Origin: Vicinamibacterales bacterium
Lineage (GTDB): Bacteria; Acidobacteriota; Vicinamibacteria; Vicinamibacterales; CAVVIG01
Assembly: GCA_035537875.1 (NCBI GenBank)
Contig: DATLLJ010000002.1
Location: forward strand, 104,283 to 168,282
Length of the DNA: 64,000 bases
Direction of reading: 5' to 3'
Numbering within the stretch: the first letter of the stretch is position 1; every line of letters begins with the position of its first letter. The notes beneath the pieces are model-generated. The model saw only the letters and a program-made list of their open reading frames with translations, made no database searches and was not told where the DNA came from. Position numbers and translations under genes: made by a program. This document shows, one piece after another, positions 6,794-44,971 of the stretch.

Positions 6794-7216
6794 CTAGCGG
6801 CGGGTGATCGGCGACAACACCGTGAACCTGCCGCGGCGCGGCAGCCTGTAGATAGCGAAGTGGCGGTCGAAGGTGACGATGCGCGTGAGCCCCTCGCGCT
6901 CGGCGGCGCAGACGAGTGCGGCATCGGCGAAATCCATGGGCACGTCGTGGTACTTCTGCATCAGTTGTTTGATGCGCGCCACGTCGGGTGCATCCAGGGC
7001 GATCAATTTCAGAATGCCATCGGCCACCATGTCGCACAGCGCCTCCGGTCCACGCCAGCCGTCAGCCAGCAGGTGCATCGCTTCAGTCAGCGCGGGCCAC
7101 ACCGTCACGAGCGGCTCACGAATCCTTTTCAACGTCTCGACACAGCGCTCGTGCGCGGCATCGTCGCGGTCGAGGAGCGCGATGAGGGCGCTCGCGTCAA
7201 CGAGGACGTCGCGCAC
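6794..7216 (-). CDS. vapC: PIN-domain ribonuclease toxin VapC
   Basis: 140 aa. It begins MRDVLVDASALIALLDRDD and ends ...FADAALVCAAEREGLTRIVTFDRHF, the canonical PIN acidic residues and layout. It overlaps the upstream antitoxin by 20 nt. Confidence 0.85.
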   Translation of the reverse strand: MRDVLVDASALIALLDRDDAAHERCVETLKRIREPLVTVWPALTEAMHLLADGWRGPEALCDMVADGILKLIALDAPDVARIKQLMQKYHDVPMDFADAALVCAAEREGLTRIVTFDRHFAIYRLPRRGRFTVLSPITRR

Positions 7217-7676: not shown

Positions 7677-10429
7677 ATGGCTTCTGATAAGATGCCAGCC
7701 GGCCGGAGGTCGTCCTCCACGACGATCGGCAGCCGATTCGCGCATTACGAGATCACGGCTCATCTCGGCTCTGGCGGCATGGGCGACGTCTGTCAGGCCC
7801 TCGACACGAAGCTGGGTCGTCTCGTGGCGATCAAGCTGCTGCCCGAGGCCTTTGCCCTCGATCCCGACCGTGTCGCGCGATTCGACCGCGAAGCGCGCGC
7901 GCTGGCGTCGCTCAATCATCCTCATATCGCGACGATCTACGGGCTGGAGGAATCAGCCGAGCAGCCGCGTGGCCGCAAGTTTCTCGTGATGGAGCTCGTC
8001 GTGGGGCCGACCCTTCACGACATGATCGCGGGCTCCGGGCAGGGCCTTCCCGCCCCAGAGGCGCTGCGCATCGCGCAGAAGATCGCCGAAGCGCTCGAGG
8101 CCGCGCACGAGAAAGGGATCGTGCACCGCGACCTGAAACCCGCGAACATCAGGGTCTCGGCCGATGGTCAGGTGAAGGTCCTCGACTTCGGCCTGGCGAA
8201 GGCGTTCTCCGGCGAGGCTGACGCGAACCTGTCGAACTCGCCGACGCTCAGCCTGGCGGCAACGCAGGCAGGCATCATCCTCGGCACCGCGGCCTACATG
8301 TCCCCCGAGCAGCCGAAGGGCGCGAAGGCGGACCACCGCAGCGACGTGTTCTCGTTCGGATGCGTGCTGTACGAGATGCTCACCGCACGACAGGCCTTCC
8401 AGGGCGAGACCACCTCGGACATCCTCGCGTCGGTGCTCGCCCGGGAGCCCGACTTAACCCGGCTCCCTCCGGATCTGAATTCGAGACTCCACGACCTCCT
8501 GCGTCGTTGTCTGGAGAAGCCACCCAGGCGCCGCTGGCAGGCCGTGGGCGACCTGCGGATGGAGCTCGAGGTCATCGCGCCGGAGCCGTACTGCAAGCCG
8601 GATGTCGCGCGGACCGCCGCGCCCCAGGCGCCCGGGCGGACGGCGCTTGCCTGGGTCTTGCGCGCGGCGACGGCACTGTTGGTCGTCGCCCTCGCGATAC
8701 CAGCGCTTCTCTACTTCCGGCGAGCCGACGCGGGCCGCGACGCCGTCCGGTTTCTCGTCGCCGTGCCGGACATGCCGAACCCGCTGCTGACAACGATCTC
8801 TCCCGACGGCCGGAAGGTGGCATTCGTCGCGGCCGGCGAGGGCGGCGCGCCGCAGTTATTCGTGCGACCGCTCGAGTCGGTCACGGCGGAGCGACTGGCC
8901 GGCACGGAGGGAGCCACGAACCCGTTCTGGTCGCCGGACAGCCGCTTCATTGCGTTTACCGCGGGTGACGTAGGCAGGGGTGGGACGCTCAAGTAAATCG
9001 AAGCGACGGGCGGTGCGCCTCAGACGATCGCGTCGTTGGAATCGTCCATCCCCTCACGCGTGACGAGTTTCGGCGCCGGCACCTGGAACGACGAGGGCGT
9101 GATCGTGTTCTCGAACAGAGGCCGCCTCCATCGGGTGTCGGCCGCCGGGGGCGCGCCCGTGGTGATCAGCGACTTGGACGAGTCGCTTGAAGAGACCGTG
9201 CACAACTGGCCCCATTTCCTGCCCGATGGGCGTCACTACCTGTACCTCGCCTGGAGCAACAGACCTGAACATCGAGCCATCTACGTCGGCGAGCTCGACG
9301 CTCCAGGACGGCAGCGCCTCGCCGCGTCTGAGTCGATGGCCGTCTTCTCGATGCCGGGCTATTTGCTCTTCCAGCGTCAGGGCGCGCTGTTCGCGCAAGC
9401 CTTCGATGCGACGGACTTGACTCTCCAGGGGGAGCCGATTCGCGTCGCGGAAGACGTGGCATTCGATCCGGGGAATGGTCAGGCAGCGTTCGCCGCCTCT
9501 CGGAACGGTGTGCTGACCCATCGCGGCGGCGGCGCATCGGGCACGTCAGTCAGTTCGTGTGGTTCGATCGAACCGGAAAGCGGCTGGGCGAGGCGGGGCG
9601 CCCTGACCTTTACGCCGCAGAGTTCGACTTGTCTCCGGATGGCCGGCAGATCGCTGCCCCCGTGCCCGACCCCACGGCATCGCGCCGCGATATCTGGGTC
9701 ATCGACTGGGTCCGCGACGTGAGGACCCGAGTCACGTCTGCCAGCTCCGCCGGGCGACCAGGCGGTCCGCTGTGGTCGCACGATGGGCTCCGGGTCGCTT
9801 TCAATCGTCAGACGGATCAGTCCGACGTAATGGAAAGAGCCGCGACCGGCGACGAGACGGTCGTTGTCGGTGGACCCGATAACGACATCGCCGAAGAGTG
9901 GTCCAAAGATAGCCGTTACATGGTGCTCTTCCATCGTCCGGTGTCGGAGAGCCAAGTCACGTGGCAGGCGCTTCCTCTCTTCGGCGACCGCAAACCGTTT
10001 TCGATTGACGTGACACCGAGGGTCTCAAACGATGAGCCGGAGTTCTCCTTCGATGGAAGGTGGCTGGCGTATAACTCCGAAGAGTCAGGCACGACGCAGG
10101 TCCACGTGATGTCCTTTCCAGCCGCCGACCAGAAACGTCAGCTCTCCATCGACGGCGGCGCCCAACCGCAGTGGAGGCGGGACGGACGGGAGCTTTACTA
10201 TGTGGACCTCGACGGGAACCTCATGGCCGTCGACATCGCGGCCGATTCCCGAATCGATTCCGGCAGGCCGCGCGCACTGTTCAGGACCGGGCTGAGTGTC
10301 CAAACATTCGCGAGACAGTACGCGGCGACCTCGGACGGCCAGCGGTTCCTCGTCCTGCTGCCCGTCGCCGAGGCGACGCCGACGCCGATTACCGTGGTCG
10401 TCAACTGGATGGCCGCAATCGGACGATAG
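7677..10429 (+). pseudogene. Ser/Thr protein kinase fused to a TolB-like beta-propeller, disrupted by an in-frame TAA and a frameshift
   Basis: Three consecutive ORFs (7677..8996, 9036..9722, 9557..10429) read as one protein. The kinase domain is present (GSGGMGDV...AIK...HRDLKPANI...DFGLAK...YMSPEQ), followed by a TM helix and WD40-like/TolB repeats (PFWSPDSRFIAF, FLPDGRHYLY, LSPDGRQIA, FSFDGRWLAYNSEESG). The TAA at 8994-8996 is in frame with 9036. The frame changes near 9545-9553 (..GVLTHRGGGASGT / SQFVWFDRTGK..). Confidence 0.75.
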
Positions 10430-11580: not shown

Positions 11581-11964
11581 TCAGCCGCGGGCCGCGCGAG
11601 AGGCCTTCCGCGACTCGAGCTTGCGCCTCCGACGCCTCGTCGGCTGCAGCGCCCCGTGAGACCGCGCTCCGGAGGAACCCAATCCCCGCCATTCCCGGGC
11701 AACTCGATCGGCCAAGAAGACCTTCAGGAGCGATTGATATGGCACGTCCTGCCGGTTGGCGAGTGCCTTGAGATCGGCGAGGAGGCCAGCTGGCAGGCGG
11801 ACCGAGATCGTCTCCGTTGATGGCTTGAGATTCGGAAATCGCACAGGCCGGGCCGACGACCAATCGACGTAGTCCGCGGAATCGTGCGTCTCCCAGAAAC
11901 GGCGTTCTTCCGCCTCACTTCTGAATGTCGGAATTGGCCTGGGCCTGTGCTTCGACTTGGCCAT
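11581..11964 (-). CDS. brnA: BrnA-family antitoxin (CopG-like)
   Basis: 127 aa. The segment FRSEAEERRFWETHDSADYVDWSSARPVRFPNLKPSTETISVRLPAGLLADLKALANRQDVPYQSLLKVFLADRV matches the BrnA pattern. An Arg-rich tail of about 35 aa beyond the usual end is of doubtful significance. Confidence 0.7.
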   Translation of the reverse strand: MAKSKHRPRPIPTFRSEAEERRFWETHDSADYVDWSSARPVRFPNLKPSTETISVRLPAGLLADLKALANRQDVPYQSLLKVFLADRVAREWRGLGSSGARSHGALQPTRRRRRKLESRKASRAARG

Positions 11965-19213: not shown

Positions 19214-19234
19214 GAGGTTAGGGGCCTCTAACCT
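19214..19234. terminator. Hairpin between convergent genes
   Basis: GAGGTTAG-gggcct-CTAACCTC is an 8-bp perfect stem. It lies 7 nt after the stop at 19207 and overlaps the stop of the OsmC gene. Confidence 0.5.
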
Positions 19235-19743
19235 CTAGCCTCCACACTCGCCCTCACAGAAATCGTCGGCGCCTGACGCAGCGTCTGAAGCACGACACAG
19301 TACCGCTCCGTCAGGCGCGTGAGCGTCGCGATCTGTTCTGCCGACGCGTCGGTGTCGAGCTCGAACGTGAGCCGGATCTCGCGAAAACCGACCGGGGCGT
19401 CCTTGGTGACGCCCAGAGTTCCGCGAAAATCGACATCGCCTTCGGCGCGGACGATGCCGCTGCGTACGTCGATGCCTGTAGCGGTCGCGACCGCGCTGAG
19501 CGTCACTCCCGCACAGGCGGCGAGCGCTTCGAGCAGCATATCGCCCGAACAGACGAACGCCCCCGTGCCCCCTGTGGCCGGGTGCAGTCCCGCTTCGACG
19601 AGCGCCTTGCCTGTCTCCACCCGGCACGTGACGCCTTCGCCGATGCGGCCGGCGGCACGAAGCGTCACGACGGCAGACTCGGGGCGGGCCCGGTATTGCT
19701 CCTTGAGGGGCGCCTGGAGAGCGCGAAGATCGTCAGTGTTCAT
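19228..19743 (-). CDS. OsmC/Ohr-family peroxiredoxin-like protein (Cys form)
   Basis: 171 aa. The motifs GDMLLEALAACAGVTL and LTERYCVVLQTL give the two conserved Cys contexts of OsmC. Confidence 0.8.
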   Translation of the reverse strand: MNTDDLRALQAPLKEQYRARPESAVVTLRAAGRIGEGVTCRVETGKALVEAGLHPATGGTGAFVCSGDMLLEALAACAGVTLSAVATATGIDVRSGIVRAEGDVDFRGTLGVTKDAPVGFREIRLTFELDTDASAEQIATLTRLTERYCVVLQTLRQAPTISVRASVEARG

Positions 19744-26413: not shown

Positions 26414-29400
26414 TCAGTTCTGAAGCAGACGGGTCGCGAGACGACCGGAACTGCCCCGCAAGAGCGACTCCCGCACCCGTCGTGAAGCGTCCGATGCGTG
26501 TAATGGCAGGTGAATCTTCGCGGTCATATCGCCGCCCGGTTCGACCGTCATCCACAGGTGGCCGTGACAATCGCTGATGAGCGCCTGAAGCGCGCCGAGG
26601 TCGACTCCGGCTTTGGCCGCTGATTTATCGGGGCTCGGCGTGGTCGGGTTGCCGCGAAGCCCCAGCGGCCCGTCCTGCATCGCCCGCCTGATCTCCTTGA
26701 CCGTGATCAGCGCGTGAGGACCGAGACGGACGTTGGGATGCTTTGCGATGAATTGGCCATCGACGACGATGGTTGCCAGTTCGATCCTCAGTCGGCCACC
26801 GTAGGGCAGGCGCTCCCGGCAGTAACTGGCCAGATTGACGAGGAGTCTTTCGACCCGCTTCGGCTTGACATCCACCTTGAGCAGAGAAGCGGCCCTGGGC
26901 ATTTCGAGCTCGACATCGTCTCCGGCGACGCGCTTCAGAACCGGCTCGAGATCGCGTAAGACCCTGTTCAAATCGACCGGCGGAAGACTGCTGATCTCTT
27001 CGTCCCCGTACACGGCGAGCTGTCGAAGGAAGCTGGCGGCGCGCTTCACCTCATCAAGCACCTGTTGACCTTGCTGCCGCATGGCCGCGTCGGTGTCGAC
27101 AGTCGCCAGCCACTGCTCGACGTCCTGATGGATCTCGTTGAGCAGATTGCCACAGGTGACAGCGACTTCCGACGCCAGCCGTCCGACGGCTTCCATCCGG
27201 TGGGCGTCGCCGAGCCTGTCCTGGAGGGCACGAAGATTCGTCAGATCTTCGGCGACGATCTGGATGAGGTCAGGAGAAGATACGGCTGCCGACAGGCGAA
27301 CGAAGAGGCGGCTTCCATTTCTGTGCTTCCACGTGGTCTCCAGTGATTCCTTCGCGTTCGTGCTCAGGCAGCGCTCGAGCAGATACGACAGGTCCCCCGG
27401 TGATTCGAAGACCGAAGCGGCGAAGCCCGCGCCCCGCAGTTCGTCCGCCTTCCGACAGCCGACCAGGACCTCAAAGGCGCGGTTCGCCTCGATGAGCCCG
27501 CCGTCGCGGGTGCATCGGCAGAGCGGCAGGGGAGAAGTCTCGAACTGCCGACGATTCTCTGTCCGACTGTCATCGAGCCGCTTCTGCAGTTGGGGCACGC
27601 GGTTGGCTTCAGCCTGCAGAACCTCGTGACGGCTTCGAAAGCCATCGAGCTCCTGAATCGTCGCTGTGAGCTTCCCTTTGAGCTGCTCGATTTCCCGGTT
27701 TCGCGTCGCCAGCGTCGTCCGCAAACCGGTCTGAAGCTGGGTCCGCTCGTTCTCTGACGCCTGCAAGGCCGCCGCGTGCCGCGCTGCCTGCTCTTTGAAG
27801 CGAGCGTCACGCTCGCTGACGGAAGCGACCAGCGTCGCCACCGCGACGGCATGCTCGTTCGAGGCCCGATCGAATGCCTGTTGAAGGTCCCTCTGAGCCT
27901 CCAGGTACTGCTGAGCCTCGGCCTTCATGCGTTCTCGAATGGTTTCGACTTCCCCGGTCAACGAATCGCGTTCCAGCGTGAGGCGCTGGAGACGATCGTG
28001 CAGCTCAGCCAGCCGACTCTCCTGGTCACGTCGCTCTCGAGCGATCTCTTCTTCGAGTCGCGACACATGCTCGCGCGCACGCGCGGCGGCGGCTGCGGCC
28101 TCCTCGTGGAGACGCCGTTCGGTCTCAGCTGCGGTGGATCGCGTCTCCGCAACGTTGCGCTCCAACGCTTCGCGCTGTTCGGTTTCCCGAGTAAGCCGCG
28201 CTTCAAGCGCCGAGTACTGCTCTGACGCCGCCGCATGCTCCCGGATGGCGAGCTCGGCGGCTTCCTGGAGTGCGGTCGTCGCCTCGGCCAGCTGCAACTG
28301 GAGCGAATCACGGGTTGCGGCCGTCTCGGCAAGCTGCGATGCAAGCTGCATCTCGCGCTCGCCGGCCGCTTTCAGTTCACCGGTGGCGCGTTCATCCGCT
28401 TCCCTGAGTGCGATCGCCGCCTCGGTCAAGCGCTGCTCGAGGGCCCGGTGAGTTGCGGCCCCATCGGCGAGCTGGGCCGTGAGCTCCGCCTCGCGCATCG
28501 TCAAGCGCTCGACGTCGGCGGTGATCGATTCATGCTTGCGCAGGGTCACCGAGAGAGCCGACGCCAATTCTCGCGCCTGCTCGTCCAGGGCATTTCGTGC
28601 GGTCGCCACCTCGGTCAGCTGCTGATCGAGCGCCTCTCGGGCCGCGGTCGCGTCGGCAAGTCGGGATACGAGGTCCGCTTCACGCGCCTCGGCTGCCTGT
28701 CGCTCGCTGCTGGCGCGTTCGTCTGCTTCTTGGAGCGCGGTCGTCGCCTCCGTGAGCCGCAGATCGAGCGTCTGGCCAGTCGAGGCCGCGTCGGCAAGGT
28801 GGGATGCGAGCTCCGCTTCACGCGCGTCGGCCGCACGCCGTTCGCCCGCGGCGCGCTCGTTCGCTTCTTGGAGCGCGGCCGTCGCCTCCGTCAGCCGCAG
28901 CTCGAGCGTCTGGCGAGTCGAGGCCGACTCGGCAAGGTGGGACGAGAGCTCCGCCTCCCGAAGGGTCAAACGTTCGACGTCGGCCGTGACCGACTCATGG
29001 TTACGGAGAGTTGCCGAGAGAGCCGCCGCCAATTCGCGCGCCTGTTCATCCAGGGAATTTCGTGCGGCCGCTACCTCGGTCAGCTGCTGCTCGAGCGTCT
29101 GCCGGATCTCGGCAGCCTCGGCAAGTTCGGACGAGAGGTCCGCCTGACGCGCAAGAGCTGCCTGTCGTTCCCGCCCGGTGCGCTCGTCCGCTTCCTGGAG
29201 CGCGGCCGTCGCCTCCGTGAGCCGCAGCTCGAACGACTGGCGGGCGTGTATCGCCTCCGACAGCTGCGAGGCGAGTTCCGCCTCCCGCGCCCCGGCGGCC
29301 TGCCGTTCGCGGGTGGCGCGTTCGTTCGCCTCGTGGAGGGCCGTCGTCAACTCCGTCAGTCGCAGCTCGAGCGCCTGCCGGCTCGAGGCCGCGTCGGCAA

Positions 29401-31375
29401 GTTGGGACGAAAGCTCCGCCTCACGCTGCGTCAGGCGCTCGACGTCAGCAGCGGCCGACTCGTGGCTGCTCTGGACCGAGGAGAGGGCCGCCGACAGTTC
29501 GCGCGCCTGCTGCTCAAACGTATCTCGAGCCGCTGCTGCCTCGGTCACACGCTGCTCAAGGACCTGACGGGTGTGAACGGCGTCGGCAAGCTGGGATGCA
29601 AGCTCCGCTTCACGCGCGGCGGCCGCCTCCCGTTCGCTTGTGGCGCGTGCGTGCGCTTCTTCGAGCGCGCTCGTCACATCCATCAGTCGCAGCTCGAGCG
29701 CTTGACGGGCAGCGCCCGCGTCCGCAAGCTGCGAGGCGACGTCCGCCTGTCGCCGCGTTAAACGCTCGACGTCGGCGGTGGCCGACTCGTGGTTGCGCCG
29801 GGCCACGGTGAGGGCCGCCGACAGTTCGCGCGCCTGCTGGTCCAGCGCATGGCGTGCGGTGACCGCCTCGGTCAACTCGGCGTCGAACTGTGCCTGGCGC
29901 TCGGAAAGGGCGGCCGCGGCGCTTGTCATCGCCGACGCATGTCGCTCCTCAAGCTCCCGCAGGGCGATTTCCGTCTGGGCGAGGGTCTGTTCGAGGGCGG
30001 CGCGCGATGCACGCTCCTCACGAACCACCTGGTCGAGCTCCGCCTGTCGCGCGGCGGCCGCCTGCCGTTCGCGGGTTACCCGCTCGTCCGCCTCTGTGAG
30101 CGCCGTCGCCGCTTCCGCCAGCCCCAGTTCGAGCGTCTCGCGAGTGTGGACCGCGTCGGCAAGCTGCGAGGCGAGCTCCGCTTGTCGCGCGGCGGCCGCC
30201 TGCTGTTCGCGGGTTACGCGCTCGTCGGCCTCTGTGAGCGCCGCCGCCGCTTCCGCCAGCCCCAGTTCGAGCGTCTCGCGAGTGTGGACCGCGTCGGCAA
30301 GCTGCGAGGCGAGCTCCGCTTCGCGATGCCTCAGACGCTCGACGTCGGCAATGGCCGTCGCATGGTTCTGCCTGGCCCGGTGCACCTCGATGGCCGCCAC
30401 GCGCAGCTGCTCGTCGATCATGTCCCGCATGGCCGCGGCGCGCGCAATCGCGATGTCGTGCTTCGCCTGACGTTCGGCCAGCTGACTGGCGGCGGCGGTC
30501 AGCGCCGACTGGTGGCGCTGCTCCGCATCCTGAAGTGCGGCCTTGACATCGACGAGCTCCTCCTCGAGGCTGCCGCGCGCCTCGCGCTCCAATTGAACAA
30601 CGCGTTCGAGCTTCGTTTCGCGATCGGCCGCCGCCGACTGTTCGGCTGCCCGGCTCTGTTCACGCTGCCGCAGCAAGGCCTCCACGTCGGCCAGGCGATC
30701 CTGGAGCGCCGACTTACTGCGAACCGCATCGGCCAGCCTCGCGTCCAGTGCCTGCCACTGCGCGAGCCGATCCGCCGCCGGTGAATCCGAGGCTGTCGCC
30801 CGTCTGGCGCGATCGAGCAACGCTTGCACGTCAGCCGGTATAGGTGCGGCGCCGACGCGCGTCGCGCTGGTTCCCGTCGGCCGGAGAGGCTGCGAGGGTT
30901 GCTTTACGTCCAAAGTCTCAACCTTGTGAGTGCGCGCTGGCGCGATCGGCTCCCTGGATGAACGCTCGCGGTCGCCATCGACAGGCGTATGCGCAATCGC
31001 TCGAGTGATGGCCCCCGCAAGAGCGCCGACGTTCTTGGCGGTGTGAACGCCAGCGCCCACGTGGGCCGATTCGAGCTCGAGGCTTGCGCCGTCTGGCGAG
31101 ATGACCACGACCGGGGCAGTGAGCCCAAGGCGCCGAACCTGGGCCAGAAACGCGTTGAAGTTTTCACTGCTGAGCTGGGTTTCCGCGACGACAGCCGCCA
31201 CGTCAGGGTTTTGTTCAATCCGGTGCGTGGCATGGTCGAAGTGAGTGGCCCACAAGACCTTAACCGTTGGCGTTACGCTGTAGAGCGCAGCGGCAACAGC
31301 CTGGGCATCGGTGCGCGCGGTGGCGACATAGAGAATCTTCATGCACTCGGGCGAACTTGTGAGAATTCGCCGCAC
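26414..31375 (-). CDS. Giant coiled-coil signalling-like protein: receiver-like domain, ~1100-aa coiled coil, PAS domain, degenerate histidine-kinase core
   Basis: This is a single 1653-codon ORF; the likely start is MKILYVAT at 31342. Residues 12-130 are CheY-like. Residues ~190-1281 are rich in A/E/R/L/Q, contain almost no Pro or Gly, and include tandem repeats. Residues 1282-1390 are PAS-like. Residues 1391-1415 (HRMEAVGRLASEVAVTCGNLLNEI) are HisKA-like. Residues 1467-1640 are HATPase_c-like (VDLNRVLRDLEPVLKRVAGDDVELE...RLLVNLASYCRERLPYGGRLRIE...). Confidence 0.85.
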   Translation of the reverse strand: MRRILTSSPECMKILYVATARTDAQAVAAALYSVTPTVKVLWATHFDHATHRIEQNPDVAAVVAETQLSSENFNAFLAQVRRLGLTAPVVVISPDGASLELESAHVGAGVHTAKNVGALAGAITRAIAHTPVDGDRERSSREPIAPARTHKVETLDVKQPSQPLRPTGTSATRVGAAPIPADVQALLDRARRATASDSPAADRLAQWQALDARLADAVRSKSALQDRLADVEALLRQREQSRAAEQSAAADRETKLERVVQLEREARGSLEEELVDVKAALQDAEQRHQSALTAAASQLAERQAKHDIAIARAAAMRDMIDEQLRVAAIEVHRARQNHATAIADVERLRHREAELASQLADAVHTRETLELGLAEAAAALTEADERVTREQQAAAARQAELASQLADAVHTRETLELGLAEAATALTEADERVTRERQAAAARQAELDQVVREERASRAALEQTLAQTEIALRELEERHASAMTSAAAALSERQAQFDAELTEAVTARHALDQQARELSAALTVARRNHESATADVERLTRRQADVASQLADAGAARQALELRLMDVTSALEEAHARATSEREAAAAREAELASQLADAVHTRQVLEQRVTEAAAARDTFEQQARELSAALSSVQSSHESAAADVERLTQREAELSSQLADAASSRQALELRLTELTTALHEANERATRERQAAGAREAELASQLSEAIHARQSFELRLTEATAALQEADERTGRERQAALARQADLSSELAEAAEIRQTLEQQLTEVAAARNSLDEQARELAAALSATLRNHESVTADVERLTLREAELSSHLAESASTRQTLELRLTEATAALQEANERAAGERRAADAREAELASHLADAASTGQTLDLRLTEATTALQEADERASSERQAAEAREADLVSRLADATAAREALDQQLTEVATARNALDEQARELASALSVTLRKHESITADVERLTMREAELTAQLADGAATHRALEQRLTEAAIALREADERATGELKAAGEREMQLASQLAETAATRDSLQLQLAEATTALQEAAELAIREHAAASEQYSALEARLTRETEQREALERNVAETRSTAAETERRLHEEAAAAAARAREHVSRLEEEIARERRDQESRLAELHDRLQRLTLERDSLTGEVETIRERMKAEAQQYLEAQRDLQQAFDRASNEHAVAVATLVASVSERDARFKEQAARHAAALQASENERTQLQTGLRTTLATRNREIEQLKGKLTATIQELDGFRSRHEVLQAEANRVPQLQKRLDDSRTENRRQFETSPLPLCRCTRDGGLIEANRAFEVLVGCRKADELRGAGFAASVFESPGDLSYLLERCLSTNAKESLETTWKHRNGSRLFVRLSAAVSSPDLIQIVAEDLTNLRALQDRLGDAHRMEAVGRLASEVAVTCGNLLNEIHQDVEQWLATVDTDAAMRQQGQQVLDEVKRAASFLRQLAVYGDEEISSLPPVDLNRVLRDLEPVLKRVAGDDVELEMPRAASLLKVDVKPKRVERLLVNLASYCRERLPYGGRLRIELATIVVDGQFIAKHPNVRLGPHALITVKEIRRAMQDGPLGLRGNPTTPSPDKSAAKAGVDLGALQALISDCHGHLWMTVEPGGDMTAKIHLPLHASDASRRVRESLLRGSSGRLATRLLQN
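28220..30325 (-). repeat. In-frame tandem repeat array inside the giant gene (138-bp A units, 189-bp B units, 465-bp A-A-B super-repeat)
   Basis: Nine 46-aa A units have the consensus REAELASQLADAxxxRQxLELRLTEATxALQEADERxxRERQAAxA. Three clear 63-aa B units have the consensus RxAxLxSxLAxAxxxRxxLxQQLTEVAxARNxLDEQARELxxALSxTLRxHESxTADVERLTx. The two N-terminal A units (30188-30325 and 30050-30187) differ at only about 4 of 138 nt. Confidence 0.9.
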
Positions 31376-43831: not shown

Positions 43832-44305
43832 TCAACCCGTGATGGTGCAGAGCTCGGTCGTGATGGCAATCGCGGACCGAAGCGAGCGATAGACCGGGCA
43901 TTTTTCCTTGAACACGTCGTGCGCCCGTTCGGCGACGCTGATCTGATCGGGAAATACGCCCGTCAACGTCAGCACGACGTGAACGCGTCGAAGCACCAGA
44001 ACCCCCTCTTCGACCTCGACCTCGCCGTGCGCCACGGCCGTGAGACGTTCGCCCGAAGCGTCGATGTTGCGCGCCTCCAGCGCGCCCCCCAGGGTACCGA
44101 TGAGTCAACCACCGACGGCTGCGATCACGTAATCGATGGTCGTGGCATGTGGCTCCGGCACATCGCCCTTGAAGCCGTAGTGACGGGCAATCGCGCCGTG
44201 GGTGCCGAAGCGCACGGGCTCGGGTTCGGTCGGGAGCTTCGCCAGACGCAGCGGCCCCTTGATGCGGGTCAATGGGATTTCAGCTCTGTAGACCACGTCA
44301 CCCAT
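43832..44305 (-). CDS. OsmC-like protein with an in-frame TGA at the conserved peroxidatic-Cys position (candidate selenoprotein; alternatively a nonsense pseudogene)
   Basis: ORFs 44105..44404 and 43832..44035 share one frame, and no other stop lies between them. The joined product is ...HATTIDYVIAAVGG[TGA]LIGTLGGALEARNIDASGERLTAVAHGEVEVEEGVLVLRRVHVVLTLTG...AERAHDVFKEKCPVYRSLRSAI.... This is the OsmC layout with the second conserved Cys present. The TGA is at 44107-44105. The start is taken as ATG at 44305, 12 nt after the DJ-1 stop. Confidence 0.6.
44069..44085 (-). promoter_or_regulatory. SECIS-like stem-loop downstream of the in-frame TGA
   Basis: The mRNA sense is GCGCGC-UGGAG-GCGCGC, a 6-bp GC stem with a 5-nt G-rich loop. 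The stem starts 19 nt after the UGA, and the loop G residues are 27-30 nt after it. Confidence 0.4.
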
Positions 44306-44319
44306 GTCGATCCAACGCG

Positions 44320-44916
44320 CTAGACGGCGCTCAACGATGCGTGCTCGATGCGCGTCCCGAGCACCGCCAGAAACTGAGCAATCCAGTTCGGGTGCGCCGG
44401 CCACGCGGGTGCAGTTACGAAATTACCGTCCGTCACGGCACCATCGACGTCGATGGCCGCGTACGTGGCTCCGGCCAGTTCCACTTCCGGCGAGCAGGCC
44501 GGATAGGCGCTGATCCGACGGCCCGCGATCACGTTCGCAGCCGCCAGCAGCTGCGCGCCGTGACAAATCGCAGCGATCGGCTTGTTGCTGCGGGCGAACT
44601 GTCTGACGAGATCCAGAACCCTGGCGTTCAGACGGAGATACTCGGGCGCACGACCGCCGGGAATCACGAGGGCGTCGTAGTCCCGCTCGCGGACTTCGTC
44701 GAAGGTGGCATTGAGGGTGAAGTTATGGCCGGGCTTCTCTGAGTACGTCTGATCACCCTCGAAATCGTGCACAGCGGTCCGGACCGTCTGCCCGGCCGAC
44801 TTGCCTGGACAGACAGCCTCAACGGTGTGCCCGACGGCGCGGAGCGCCTGAAAAGGCACCATCACCTCGTAGTCTTCGACGAAATCGCCGACCAGCATCA
44901 GTATCTTCTTCGCCAT
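44320..44916 (-). CDS. DJ-1/PfpI-family protein
   Basis: The ATG at 44916 follows GGAGG and gives [17 protein letters not shown]. It has ...[12 protein letters not shown]...[11 protein letters not shown] (nucleophile-elbow Cys-His). Confidence 0.85.
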
Positions 44917-44971
44917 CCCGACCTCCCCTGGATCATCGTATCGCTGCCTCGTCGCCGTCAACGCCACGGAG

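Follow-up and report, generated by a model that had tools for sequence, protein, structure and literature searches.

OsmC and Ohr proteins are presumed to act through a pair of residues, one peroxidatic and the other resolving. Lists of prokaryotic selenoprotein families have included the OsmC-like protein ever since the Sargasso Sea screen of 2005 (Zhang, Fomenko and Gladyshev, PMC1088965), and reviews of 2022 and 2026 still do, so that selenocysteine (Sec, U) as the peroxidatic residue of an OsmC-like protein is already known. That screen delivered three such sequences, assigned to COG1765, with the motif UxxT and a predicted selenocysteine insertion sequence (SECIS). The gene discussed here belongs to the metagenome-assembled genome of a Vicinamibacterales bacterium (Acidobacteriota; contig DATLLJ010000002.1), of which we analysed one stretch of 64,000 nucleotides, hereafter called the window. 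On its minus strand an OsmC-like gene is interrupted by an in-frame TGA, and a previous reading of the letters alone (the original prediction) had seen in it a candidate selenoprotein gene, adding that Sec-containing OsmC-like proteins had come only from metagenome screens, a precedent that the Sargasso Sea report bears out. From the comparison of sequences we consider that the locus is very probably a bona fide selenoprotein gene, i.e. a single functional gene whose product is an OsmC-fold selenoprotein of 157 residues, which appears to work like the known OsmC-like selenoproteins while forming a distinct subfamily.

Rereading the minus strand from 44305 to 43832 gives, as originally predicted, a single frame of 157 codons whose sole interruption is the TGA at 44107-44105, with TTIDYVIAAVGG before the stop (...IDYVIAAVGG) and LIGTLGGALEAR after it. 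The two halves had been read as one OsmC/Ohr-fold protein, and this is indeed what the joined protein looks like: with Cys placed at the stop, it matches the Pfam family OsmC (PF02566) with 41 bits, for a gathering score of 27.5, over profile positions 8-100 of 100. The N-terminus (MGDVVY...) agrees with the starts of the full-length homologs, the 13 invariant residues of the family are all kept (13/13), and the region of the second Cys, EKCPVYRSL, is intact as announced, its codon being 43900-43898. At the N-terminus the protein is further extended, over about 55 residues, by a conserved region (VVYxSxVRIERxxGPLR...HGAIAxHY). The calling of open reading frames (ORFs) splits the gene into an N-terminal piece of 66 residues, or 99 from an upstream GTG, and a piece of 67 residues starting from the GTG at 44035. 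As 34 of the 66 likely genes of the window end in TGA, many of them with full-length Pfam matches, the genetic code is standard and not reassigned. The positions of the features are collected in Table 1.

Table 1. Features of the window that concern the OsmC-like gene, its neighbour and its paralog.
Feature	Position	Strand	Remarks
Predicted OsmC-fold selenoprotein gene, complete	43832..44305	-	ATG 44305-44303; 157 sense codons including the putative Sec67; terminal TGA 43834-43832
In-frame UGA, predicted Sec residue 67	44105..44107	-	column of the first (peroxidatic) Cys of OsmC/Ohr
TGC codon of Cys136 (CPVYRSL), second (resolving) Cys	43898..43900	-	invariant in 35 homologs; aligned to GCPVSRA of 1UKK
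SECIS-like hairpin within the coding sequence	44069..44085	-	codons GGC GCG CTG GAG GCG CGC; motif G-A-L-E-A-R
DJ-1/PfpI-family gene, upstream neighbour	44320..44967	-	PF01965, 1.8e-45
Second OsmC-family gene, Cys form	19228..19743	-	OsmC 65 bits; reads LEALAACAGVTL ... RYCVVLQTL

The Sargasso Sea selenoprotein and the window protein belong to the same superfamily (PF02566), and in BLASTP the U of one aligns with the U of the other; both retain a second Cys, and in both a hairpin closely follows the UGA. Nevertheless they differ in many respects. The published sequence AACY01145085 (supplement of PMC1088965) scores 157.4 bits on the NCBIfam model NF041052, “OsmC-related (seleno)protein”, whose cut-off is 95; by contrast the window protein has no match to this model at E <=0.1, and its homologs reach at most 16.6 bits. 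The identity between the two proteins is 27% across 52 residues. The motif is U-L-I-G-T in the window protein, with the Thr at +4, and U-L-L-T in the published one, so that the former departs from the UxxT pattern; the second Cys stands in CPVYRSL and in GCFAENL respectively, and the SECIS sequences are different. The conserved extension of about 55 residues at the N-terminus is a feature of the window protein that distinguishes it from the published selenoprotein. Habitats differ too: the window form occurs in soil Acidobacteriota, candidate division KSB1, Thermoleophilia and Chloroflexota, and the published form in marine plankton. Since NF041052 does not match it, the window protein is a distinct subfamily of the same Pfam superfamily, lying outside the curated NF041052.

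The original prediction placed the TGA at the position of the first conserved, redox-active Cys of OsmC/Ohr. A profile of 35 full-length members of the family, aligned with Thermus thermophilus OsmC (1UKK), leads to the same position: the TGA/Cys column coincides with the HAGCF cysteine, and CPVYRS with the second Cys, in GCPVSRA. We take these two Cys of 1UKK to be the peroxidatic and the resolving cysteines of OsmC/Ohr. The fold and the two active-site Cys positions were assessed on P0024, a native Cys homolog that is 46% identical to the window protein and stands in for it, by means of an AlphaFold2 model. The mean predicted local distance difference test (pLDDT) score of this model is 94.7, and its top 50 matches in the PDB are all OsmC/Ohr structures, with a template modelling (TM) score of up to 0.87; the first Cys belongs to a long helix (56-78), and the second is found where helices 119-135 and 137-142 meet. 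In so far as the model speaks for the family, the latter has the OsmC fold with both active-site positions.

With the Cys OsmC/Ohr reductases (E. coli OsmC 1QWI/1NYE, 1UKK, and Ohr 1N2F/1ZB9/6EBG) the window protein would thus share the fold, as modelled for the Cys homolog, and both active-site positions, but the sequence identity is only 8-18%, and the window protein differs in having a putative Sec where they have the peroxidatic Cys, as well as an extra N-terminal beta-hairpin region. Its score on TIGR03562 (OsmC family peroxiredoxin) is 15 bits, E 0.019, for a cut-off of 85.8. The Sec peroxiredoxins, e.g. that of Eubacterium acidaminophilum (listed in PMC13188914), also have Sec for the peroxidatic Cys of a peroxide-reducing thiol enzyme; however their fold is thioredoxin-like and unrelated to OsmC.

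How far is the TGA conserved? A protein search gave 118 database clusters, which we sorted by their state at the Sec column: 35 are N-terminal fragments that stop right in front of the column, another 35 are C-terminal fragments beginning 1-8 residues ahead of GGALEAR, 17 are full-length with a “W” at the column, 20 are full-length with a Cys, L, S and G are each found in one full-length cluster, and the last 8 are other or unclassified. About 87 of the 118 clusters therefore show the same stop, either as half-length ORFs or as “W”, and in the two cases where the DNA was read (L001 and L169) the “W” is a TGA. The cluster of the 66-residue N-terminal fragment has 63 members at >=90% identity, and four independent assemblies of this lineage yield the identical fragment, with conserved synteny. 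A metagenome scan was then seeded on the C-terminal half, with the patterns [LFM]GGALEARxI and [DEG]GVLV[LI][RK]R[IV]H, the column being outside both; among its 80 best loci the column carries TGA in 79 of the 79 that are scorable, a count that is not to be read as a fully unbiased Sec:Cys ratio. TGA forms also exist in metagenome-assembled genomes (MAGs) that go under the names of candidate division KSB1, Thermoleophilia and Chloroflexota, where they are recorded as two short ORFs.

Cys forms were collected by a scan of genome contigs whose pattern ended in G[CW] and returned only TGC/TGT homologs; it served as a Cys control set and says nothing of the frequency of Sec. These 77 more distant homologs have TGC or TGT at the column, which makes with the TGA forms the Sec/Cys pair expected where Sec replaces a catalytic Cys, and orthologs of both kinds, which the original prediction had proposed to look for, do exist. 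The 78 distinct TGA sequences, hereafter the Sec forms, have a nucleotide identity of 66.5% outside the hairpin described below. Their entropy at the three codon positions is 0.55/0.16/1.48 bits upstream of the TGA and 0.73/0.57/1.60 bits downstream; this codon-position constraint on both sides of the TGA indicates that the two halves form one frame under purifying selection. An intact frame constrained on either side of the TGA, a Sec/Cys pair and TGA orthologs in other organisms, which are the marks of a selenoprotein gene, are all found here.

The second argument is a hairpin. The original prediction drew it as GCGCGC-UGGAG-GCGCGC (44085-44069), 19 nt downstream of the TGA, and the letters agree. 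It may also be drawn with a 5' arm GCGCGCU (44085-44079), a loop GGA (44078-44076) and a 3' arm GGCGCGC (44075-44069), the stem having then six G-C pairs and a U-G closing pair. Counted from the U of the UGA, the helix extends from +22 to +38, and the loop is 25-26 nt from the UGA. The bacterial SECIS model, as given in the legend of Fig. 2 of PMC13188914, has a loop of 3-9 nt, of the type N1-G-[G/U]-N-N2 in which N1 and N2 pair, a stem of 4-16 bp, a spacing of 16-37 nt and an MFE (minimum free energy) of no more than -7.5 kcal/mol. The window hairpin falls inside all four constraints, with a stem of 7 bp, a loop U-G-G-A-G/A, a spacing of 25-26 nt and a local MFE of -12.8 kcal/mol. The spacing and the G-containing loop, proposed as SECIS-like from the start, are thus in line with the published values, and the conservation of the hairpin and its linkage to TGA, presented below, point in the same direction.

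Compared with the bacterial SECIS consensus (bSECISearch; E. coli fdhF/fdnG), the window element is likewise a hairpin of the coding region located immediately 3' of the UGA, with a small apical loop containing G, and its spacing, stem length and stability are within a bSECISearch-type model. It is unlike the consensus in being a very short, all-G/C perfect palindrome of 6-7 bp, with a GGA triloop or a UGGAR pentaloop, in showing no bulged U or extended lower stem by RNAalifold, and in being almost invariant across phyla.

This hairpin is almost invariant, at synonymous sites too. In the 78 Sec forms, the codons +7 to +12 read GGC GCG CTG GAR GCG CGY: Ala+8 is GCG and Leu+9 is CTG in all 78, Ala+11 is GCG in 77 and Gly+7 is GGC in 75, although GCG accounts for 37% of the background Ala usage in the same sequences. 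The third-position entropy is 0.38 bit within the hairpin versus 1.4-1.9 bits at other invariant Ala, Gly or Val columns, and the nucleotide identity is 94% within the hairpin versus the lower value given above for the rest of the gene. RNAalifold finds one conserved helix in the Sec set, of 7 bp with a GGA triloop (-11.8 kcal/mol), and no conserved helix in the Cys set. At least six contiguous base pairs can form in 76 of the 78 Sec forms versus 9 of 76 Cys forms. The inner seven pairs are about 99.6% paired, and the three pairs that vary shift only between G-C and G-U, C-G and U-G, or U-G and U-A. The encoded peptide follows: GGALEAR is invariant in the Sec forms, whereas it is present in 9 of the 76 Cys forms, the others having GGALKAR, GGTLKAR, GGALAGR or similar. 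A peptide frozen in the Sec forms and loosened in the Cys forms is what a dual constraint on RNA and protein predicts.

A few homologs deserve a mention on their own. The closest Cys homolog, with TGT at the column and 58% identity, comes from a MAG Pyrinomonadaceae (L004:3199-3260, JBJMGP010000060.1); it keeps GGALEAR and a perfect 7-bp hairpin, GGCGCGC-UGGAG-GCGCGCC, and looks like a recent switch from Sec to Cys with a fossil SECIS. In two JGI soil samples (L002:5641-5700 and L003:554-613; protein P0017) the Sec column holds a Ser codon, TCA, which differs from TGA by one base, and the hairpin, GGUGCGC-UGGAA-GCGCGCC, is intact; this Ser form may be a derivative of a Sec form or an inactive variant. 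In L168:2950-3060, from a Thermoleophilia MAG (GCA_040289505.1, PSLH01000111.1), both the TGA and the hairpin are present, but the frame of the N-terminal part is shifted from a point about 10 codons before the TGA, either by an assembly indel or because the copy is decaying. As regards annotation, 17 public entries carry a “W” that is apparently a TGA translated as Trp (L001:120-611, L169:579-1061 and the database proteins P0002-P0016); in L169 the gene caller also read through the true terminal TGA (...FIN-stop-CC-stop). In a KSB1 MAG the gene is split into MCH8873500.1 (66 residues, hypothetical) and MCH8873499.1 (90 residues, OsmC family).

Several observations weigh against the conclusion that the gene encodes a selenoprotein. 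No selA, selB, selD or tRNA-Sec gene is present in the 64-kb window, of which about 60 ORFs were scanned; likewise the DNA flanking about 170 related loci contains no tRNA-Sec, and the 94 ORFs neighbouring the homologs contain no SelA, SelB or SelD domain. Concerning the hairpin, the counting of pairs found zero double compensatory changes, hence no strict covariation, because the stem is invariant; the support for the structure comes from its conservation and from the compatible one-sided changes. Folded as a single sequence, the 71-nt segment 44040-44110 has a z-score of -1.09, and its MFE structure omits the hairpin first proposed. The hairpin motif, which occurs once in the window, is expected 0.75 times per shuffled window when up to 2 mismatches are allowed. 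Besides, about 12% of the GC-rich Cys homologs form the hairpin, the preferred codons for A-L-E-A-R tending to yield it by themselves. The single-sequence hairpin is thus within chance, and its significance comes from the comparative data alone. Finally the pattern GGALEARxI used in the metagenome scan enriches for Sec forms. An Rfam scan of the window detected no family at threshold and is uninformative.

An alternative, for which the absence of Sec genes from the window and from the flanks searched speaks, is a decoding of UGA67 as Trp, Cys or Ser, by the near-cognate tRNA-Trp or by an opal suppressor such as the allo-tRNA or SelC*-tRNA(Cys) types reported in soil Acidobacteria and other bacteria. 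Suppressor tRNAs resembling tRNA-Sec have been reported in Acidobacteria (Mukai et al., PMC5389517), and the natural TCA variant that keeps the hairpin could be put in the same balance. On the other hand Acidobacteria also include Sec-decoding members (PMC1794560); a search of the literature for Vicinamibacteria together with selenium biology gave nothing relevant. This alternative survives better than the others, and yet we hold it for very improbable: the column is Cys in the distant homologs, a classic Sec/Cys pair; the hairpin is specific to TGA, nearly invariant and of the SelB type by its SECIS features, which would be superfluous for a general suppressor; and TGA is the normal stop of half of the window genes, which argues against an efficient general suppression.

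Slightly less probable again is that the gene is simply dead or truncated, a TGC or TGT codon having mutated to TGA so that a 66-residue fragment, or nothing, is made. Gene callers and NCBI do record the homologs as two short ORFs, and one Thermoleophilia copy is frameshifted in addition. But the same TGA stands in all the scorable close relatives (79/79), which have only about 66% nucleotide identity, purifying selection acts in frame downstream of it, and the window copy keeps its invariant residues and has no other lesion; moreover translation resumed beyond the TGA at the earliest in-frame start (GTG 44035) would lose 23 conserved residues. The original prediction had called a nonsense mutation plausible, the window having other decayed genes, but a random stop on exactly this codon improbable, and these data support the latter view. 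As for a sequencing or assembly error, or a reassigned code with UGA standing for Trp or Gly, which the 17 database entries with “W” and the one with “G” might evoke, its probability is close to negligible, given the identical N-terminal fragment from four independent assemblies, the TGA found in the DNA behind “W” in 2 of 2 checks, and the 34 of 66 window genes ending in TGA. Altogether, the TGA of the relatives, the four assemblies, the constraint on both sides and the standard code leave hardly any place for a nonsense mutation, an error or a reassigned code.

If the gene encodes a selenoprotein as we think, we infer the insertion of Sec, the interaction with SelB, a peroxidase activity and the kind of reductant along the following lines. 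The ribosome would reach UGA67 while the hairpin held in the G-A-L-E-A-R codons is bound by SelB carrying Sec-tRNA(Sec), and Sec would be inserted in place of termination. On the long active-site helix, Sec67 would replace the peroxidatic Cys, with Cys136 as the resolving residue. By analogy with OsmC/Ohr, the product would most likely be a thiol- or lipoyl-dependent hydroperoxide reductase: Sec67 might attack the peroxide, giving a selenenic acid that condenses with Cys136 into a selenenylsulfide, and an external reductant, a thiol or a dihydrolipoyl donor as for OsmC/Ohr, might then regenerate the enzyme.

The surroundings of the gene say little about this reductant. The stop of the upstream DJ-1/PfpI gene is 14 nt before the OsmC-like start, and the two genes are probably co-transcribed; downstream are found a gene for a TMEM175-like channel and one of the F420/NADP oxidoreductase family. 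The same gene order exists in close relatives (L164-L166). The distant Sec homologs have no conserved neighbourhood, at most 4 of their 94 flanking ORFs belonging to any one family, so that no operon-based clue to the reductant emerges.

The window contains a second OsmC gene, which the original prediction had rightly described as a Cys paralog with the reading given in Table 1. Of the two genes it is the one that resembles NF041052, on which it scores 44.7 bits, below the cut-off of 95. A close kinship of the two OsmC genes of the window was considered and rejected (BLASTP, E = 24). The known Sec family is thus represented in the genome by a Cys version and, if our conclusion on the first gene holds, another subfamily by a Sec version.

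A screen of the window for other genes with an in-frame TGA yielded only antisense artefacts or adjacent genes in the same frame, and it was too strict to recover the OsmC gene itself, which makes it a weak test. Some other features were encountered in the window. At 7677-10429 on the plus strand, a Ser/Thr kinase ORF (7677-8996, with Pkinase and the first PD40 repeat) stands ahead of two ORFs that overlap, 9036-9722 and 9557-10429 (PD40). The three have the look of a single kinase/beta-propeller gene in pieces, which may be one of the decayed genes to which the original prediction alludes or the result of assembly errors. At 26414-31375 on the minus strand, an ORF of 1653 residues has a coding-like signature in its GC content at third codon positions and no Pfam match at E <=1e-5. 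A PIN-domain toxin-like gene (6794-7216) and a CopG-antitoxin-family gene (11581-11964) are both on the minus strand. Several paralogs of DinB, SnoaL/DUF4440, amidohydrolase and tannase depict an accessory region rich in stress and detoxification functions.

What is new here is modest and can be delimited: a distinct subfamily of OsmC-like selenoproteins, widespread in soil and systematically mis-annotated, with a frozen SECIS that dictates the GALEAR peptide. Whether one should go further is, in our eyes, evenly balanced: the window protein could represent a second, uncatalogued family of OsmC-fold selenoproteins independent of NF041052, abundant in soil metagenomes and spread over Acidobacteriota, KSB1, Thermoleophilia and Chloroflexota, whose essentially frozen SECIS of 17-19 nt forces the motif G-G-A-L-E-A-R, which relaxes once Sec reverts to Cys, a clear instance in nature of an invariant peptide dictated by an RNA element. 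If this is true, a nearly identical SECIS across phyla would imply either a horizontal spread of the gene with its signal or a very narrow recognition by SelB.

Current annotation misses this gene, which appears as a 66-residue “hypothetical protein” plus an “OsmC family” fragment of about 67-90 residues, or with its UGA read as Trp. NF041052 does not catch the window form. Recognising the subfamily would fix hundreds of database entries. The frozen SECIS and its GALEAR peptide, together with the hairpin-bearing forms that look like Sec-to-Cys and Sec-to-Ser derivatives, offer a compact natural system for the constraints on SECIS and for the direction of Sec/Cys exchange. For the organisms themselves, the finding would bring one more selenoprotein to soil Acidobacteriota and the neighbouring phyla, whose selenoproteomes are poorly charted, and would mark these lineages as users of selenium.

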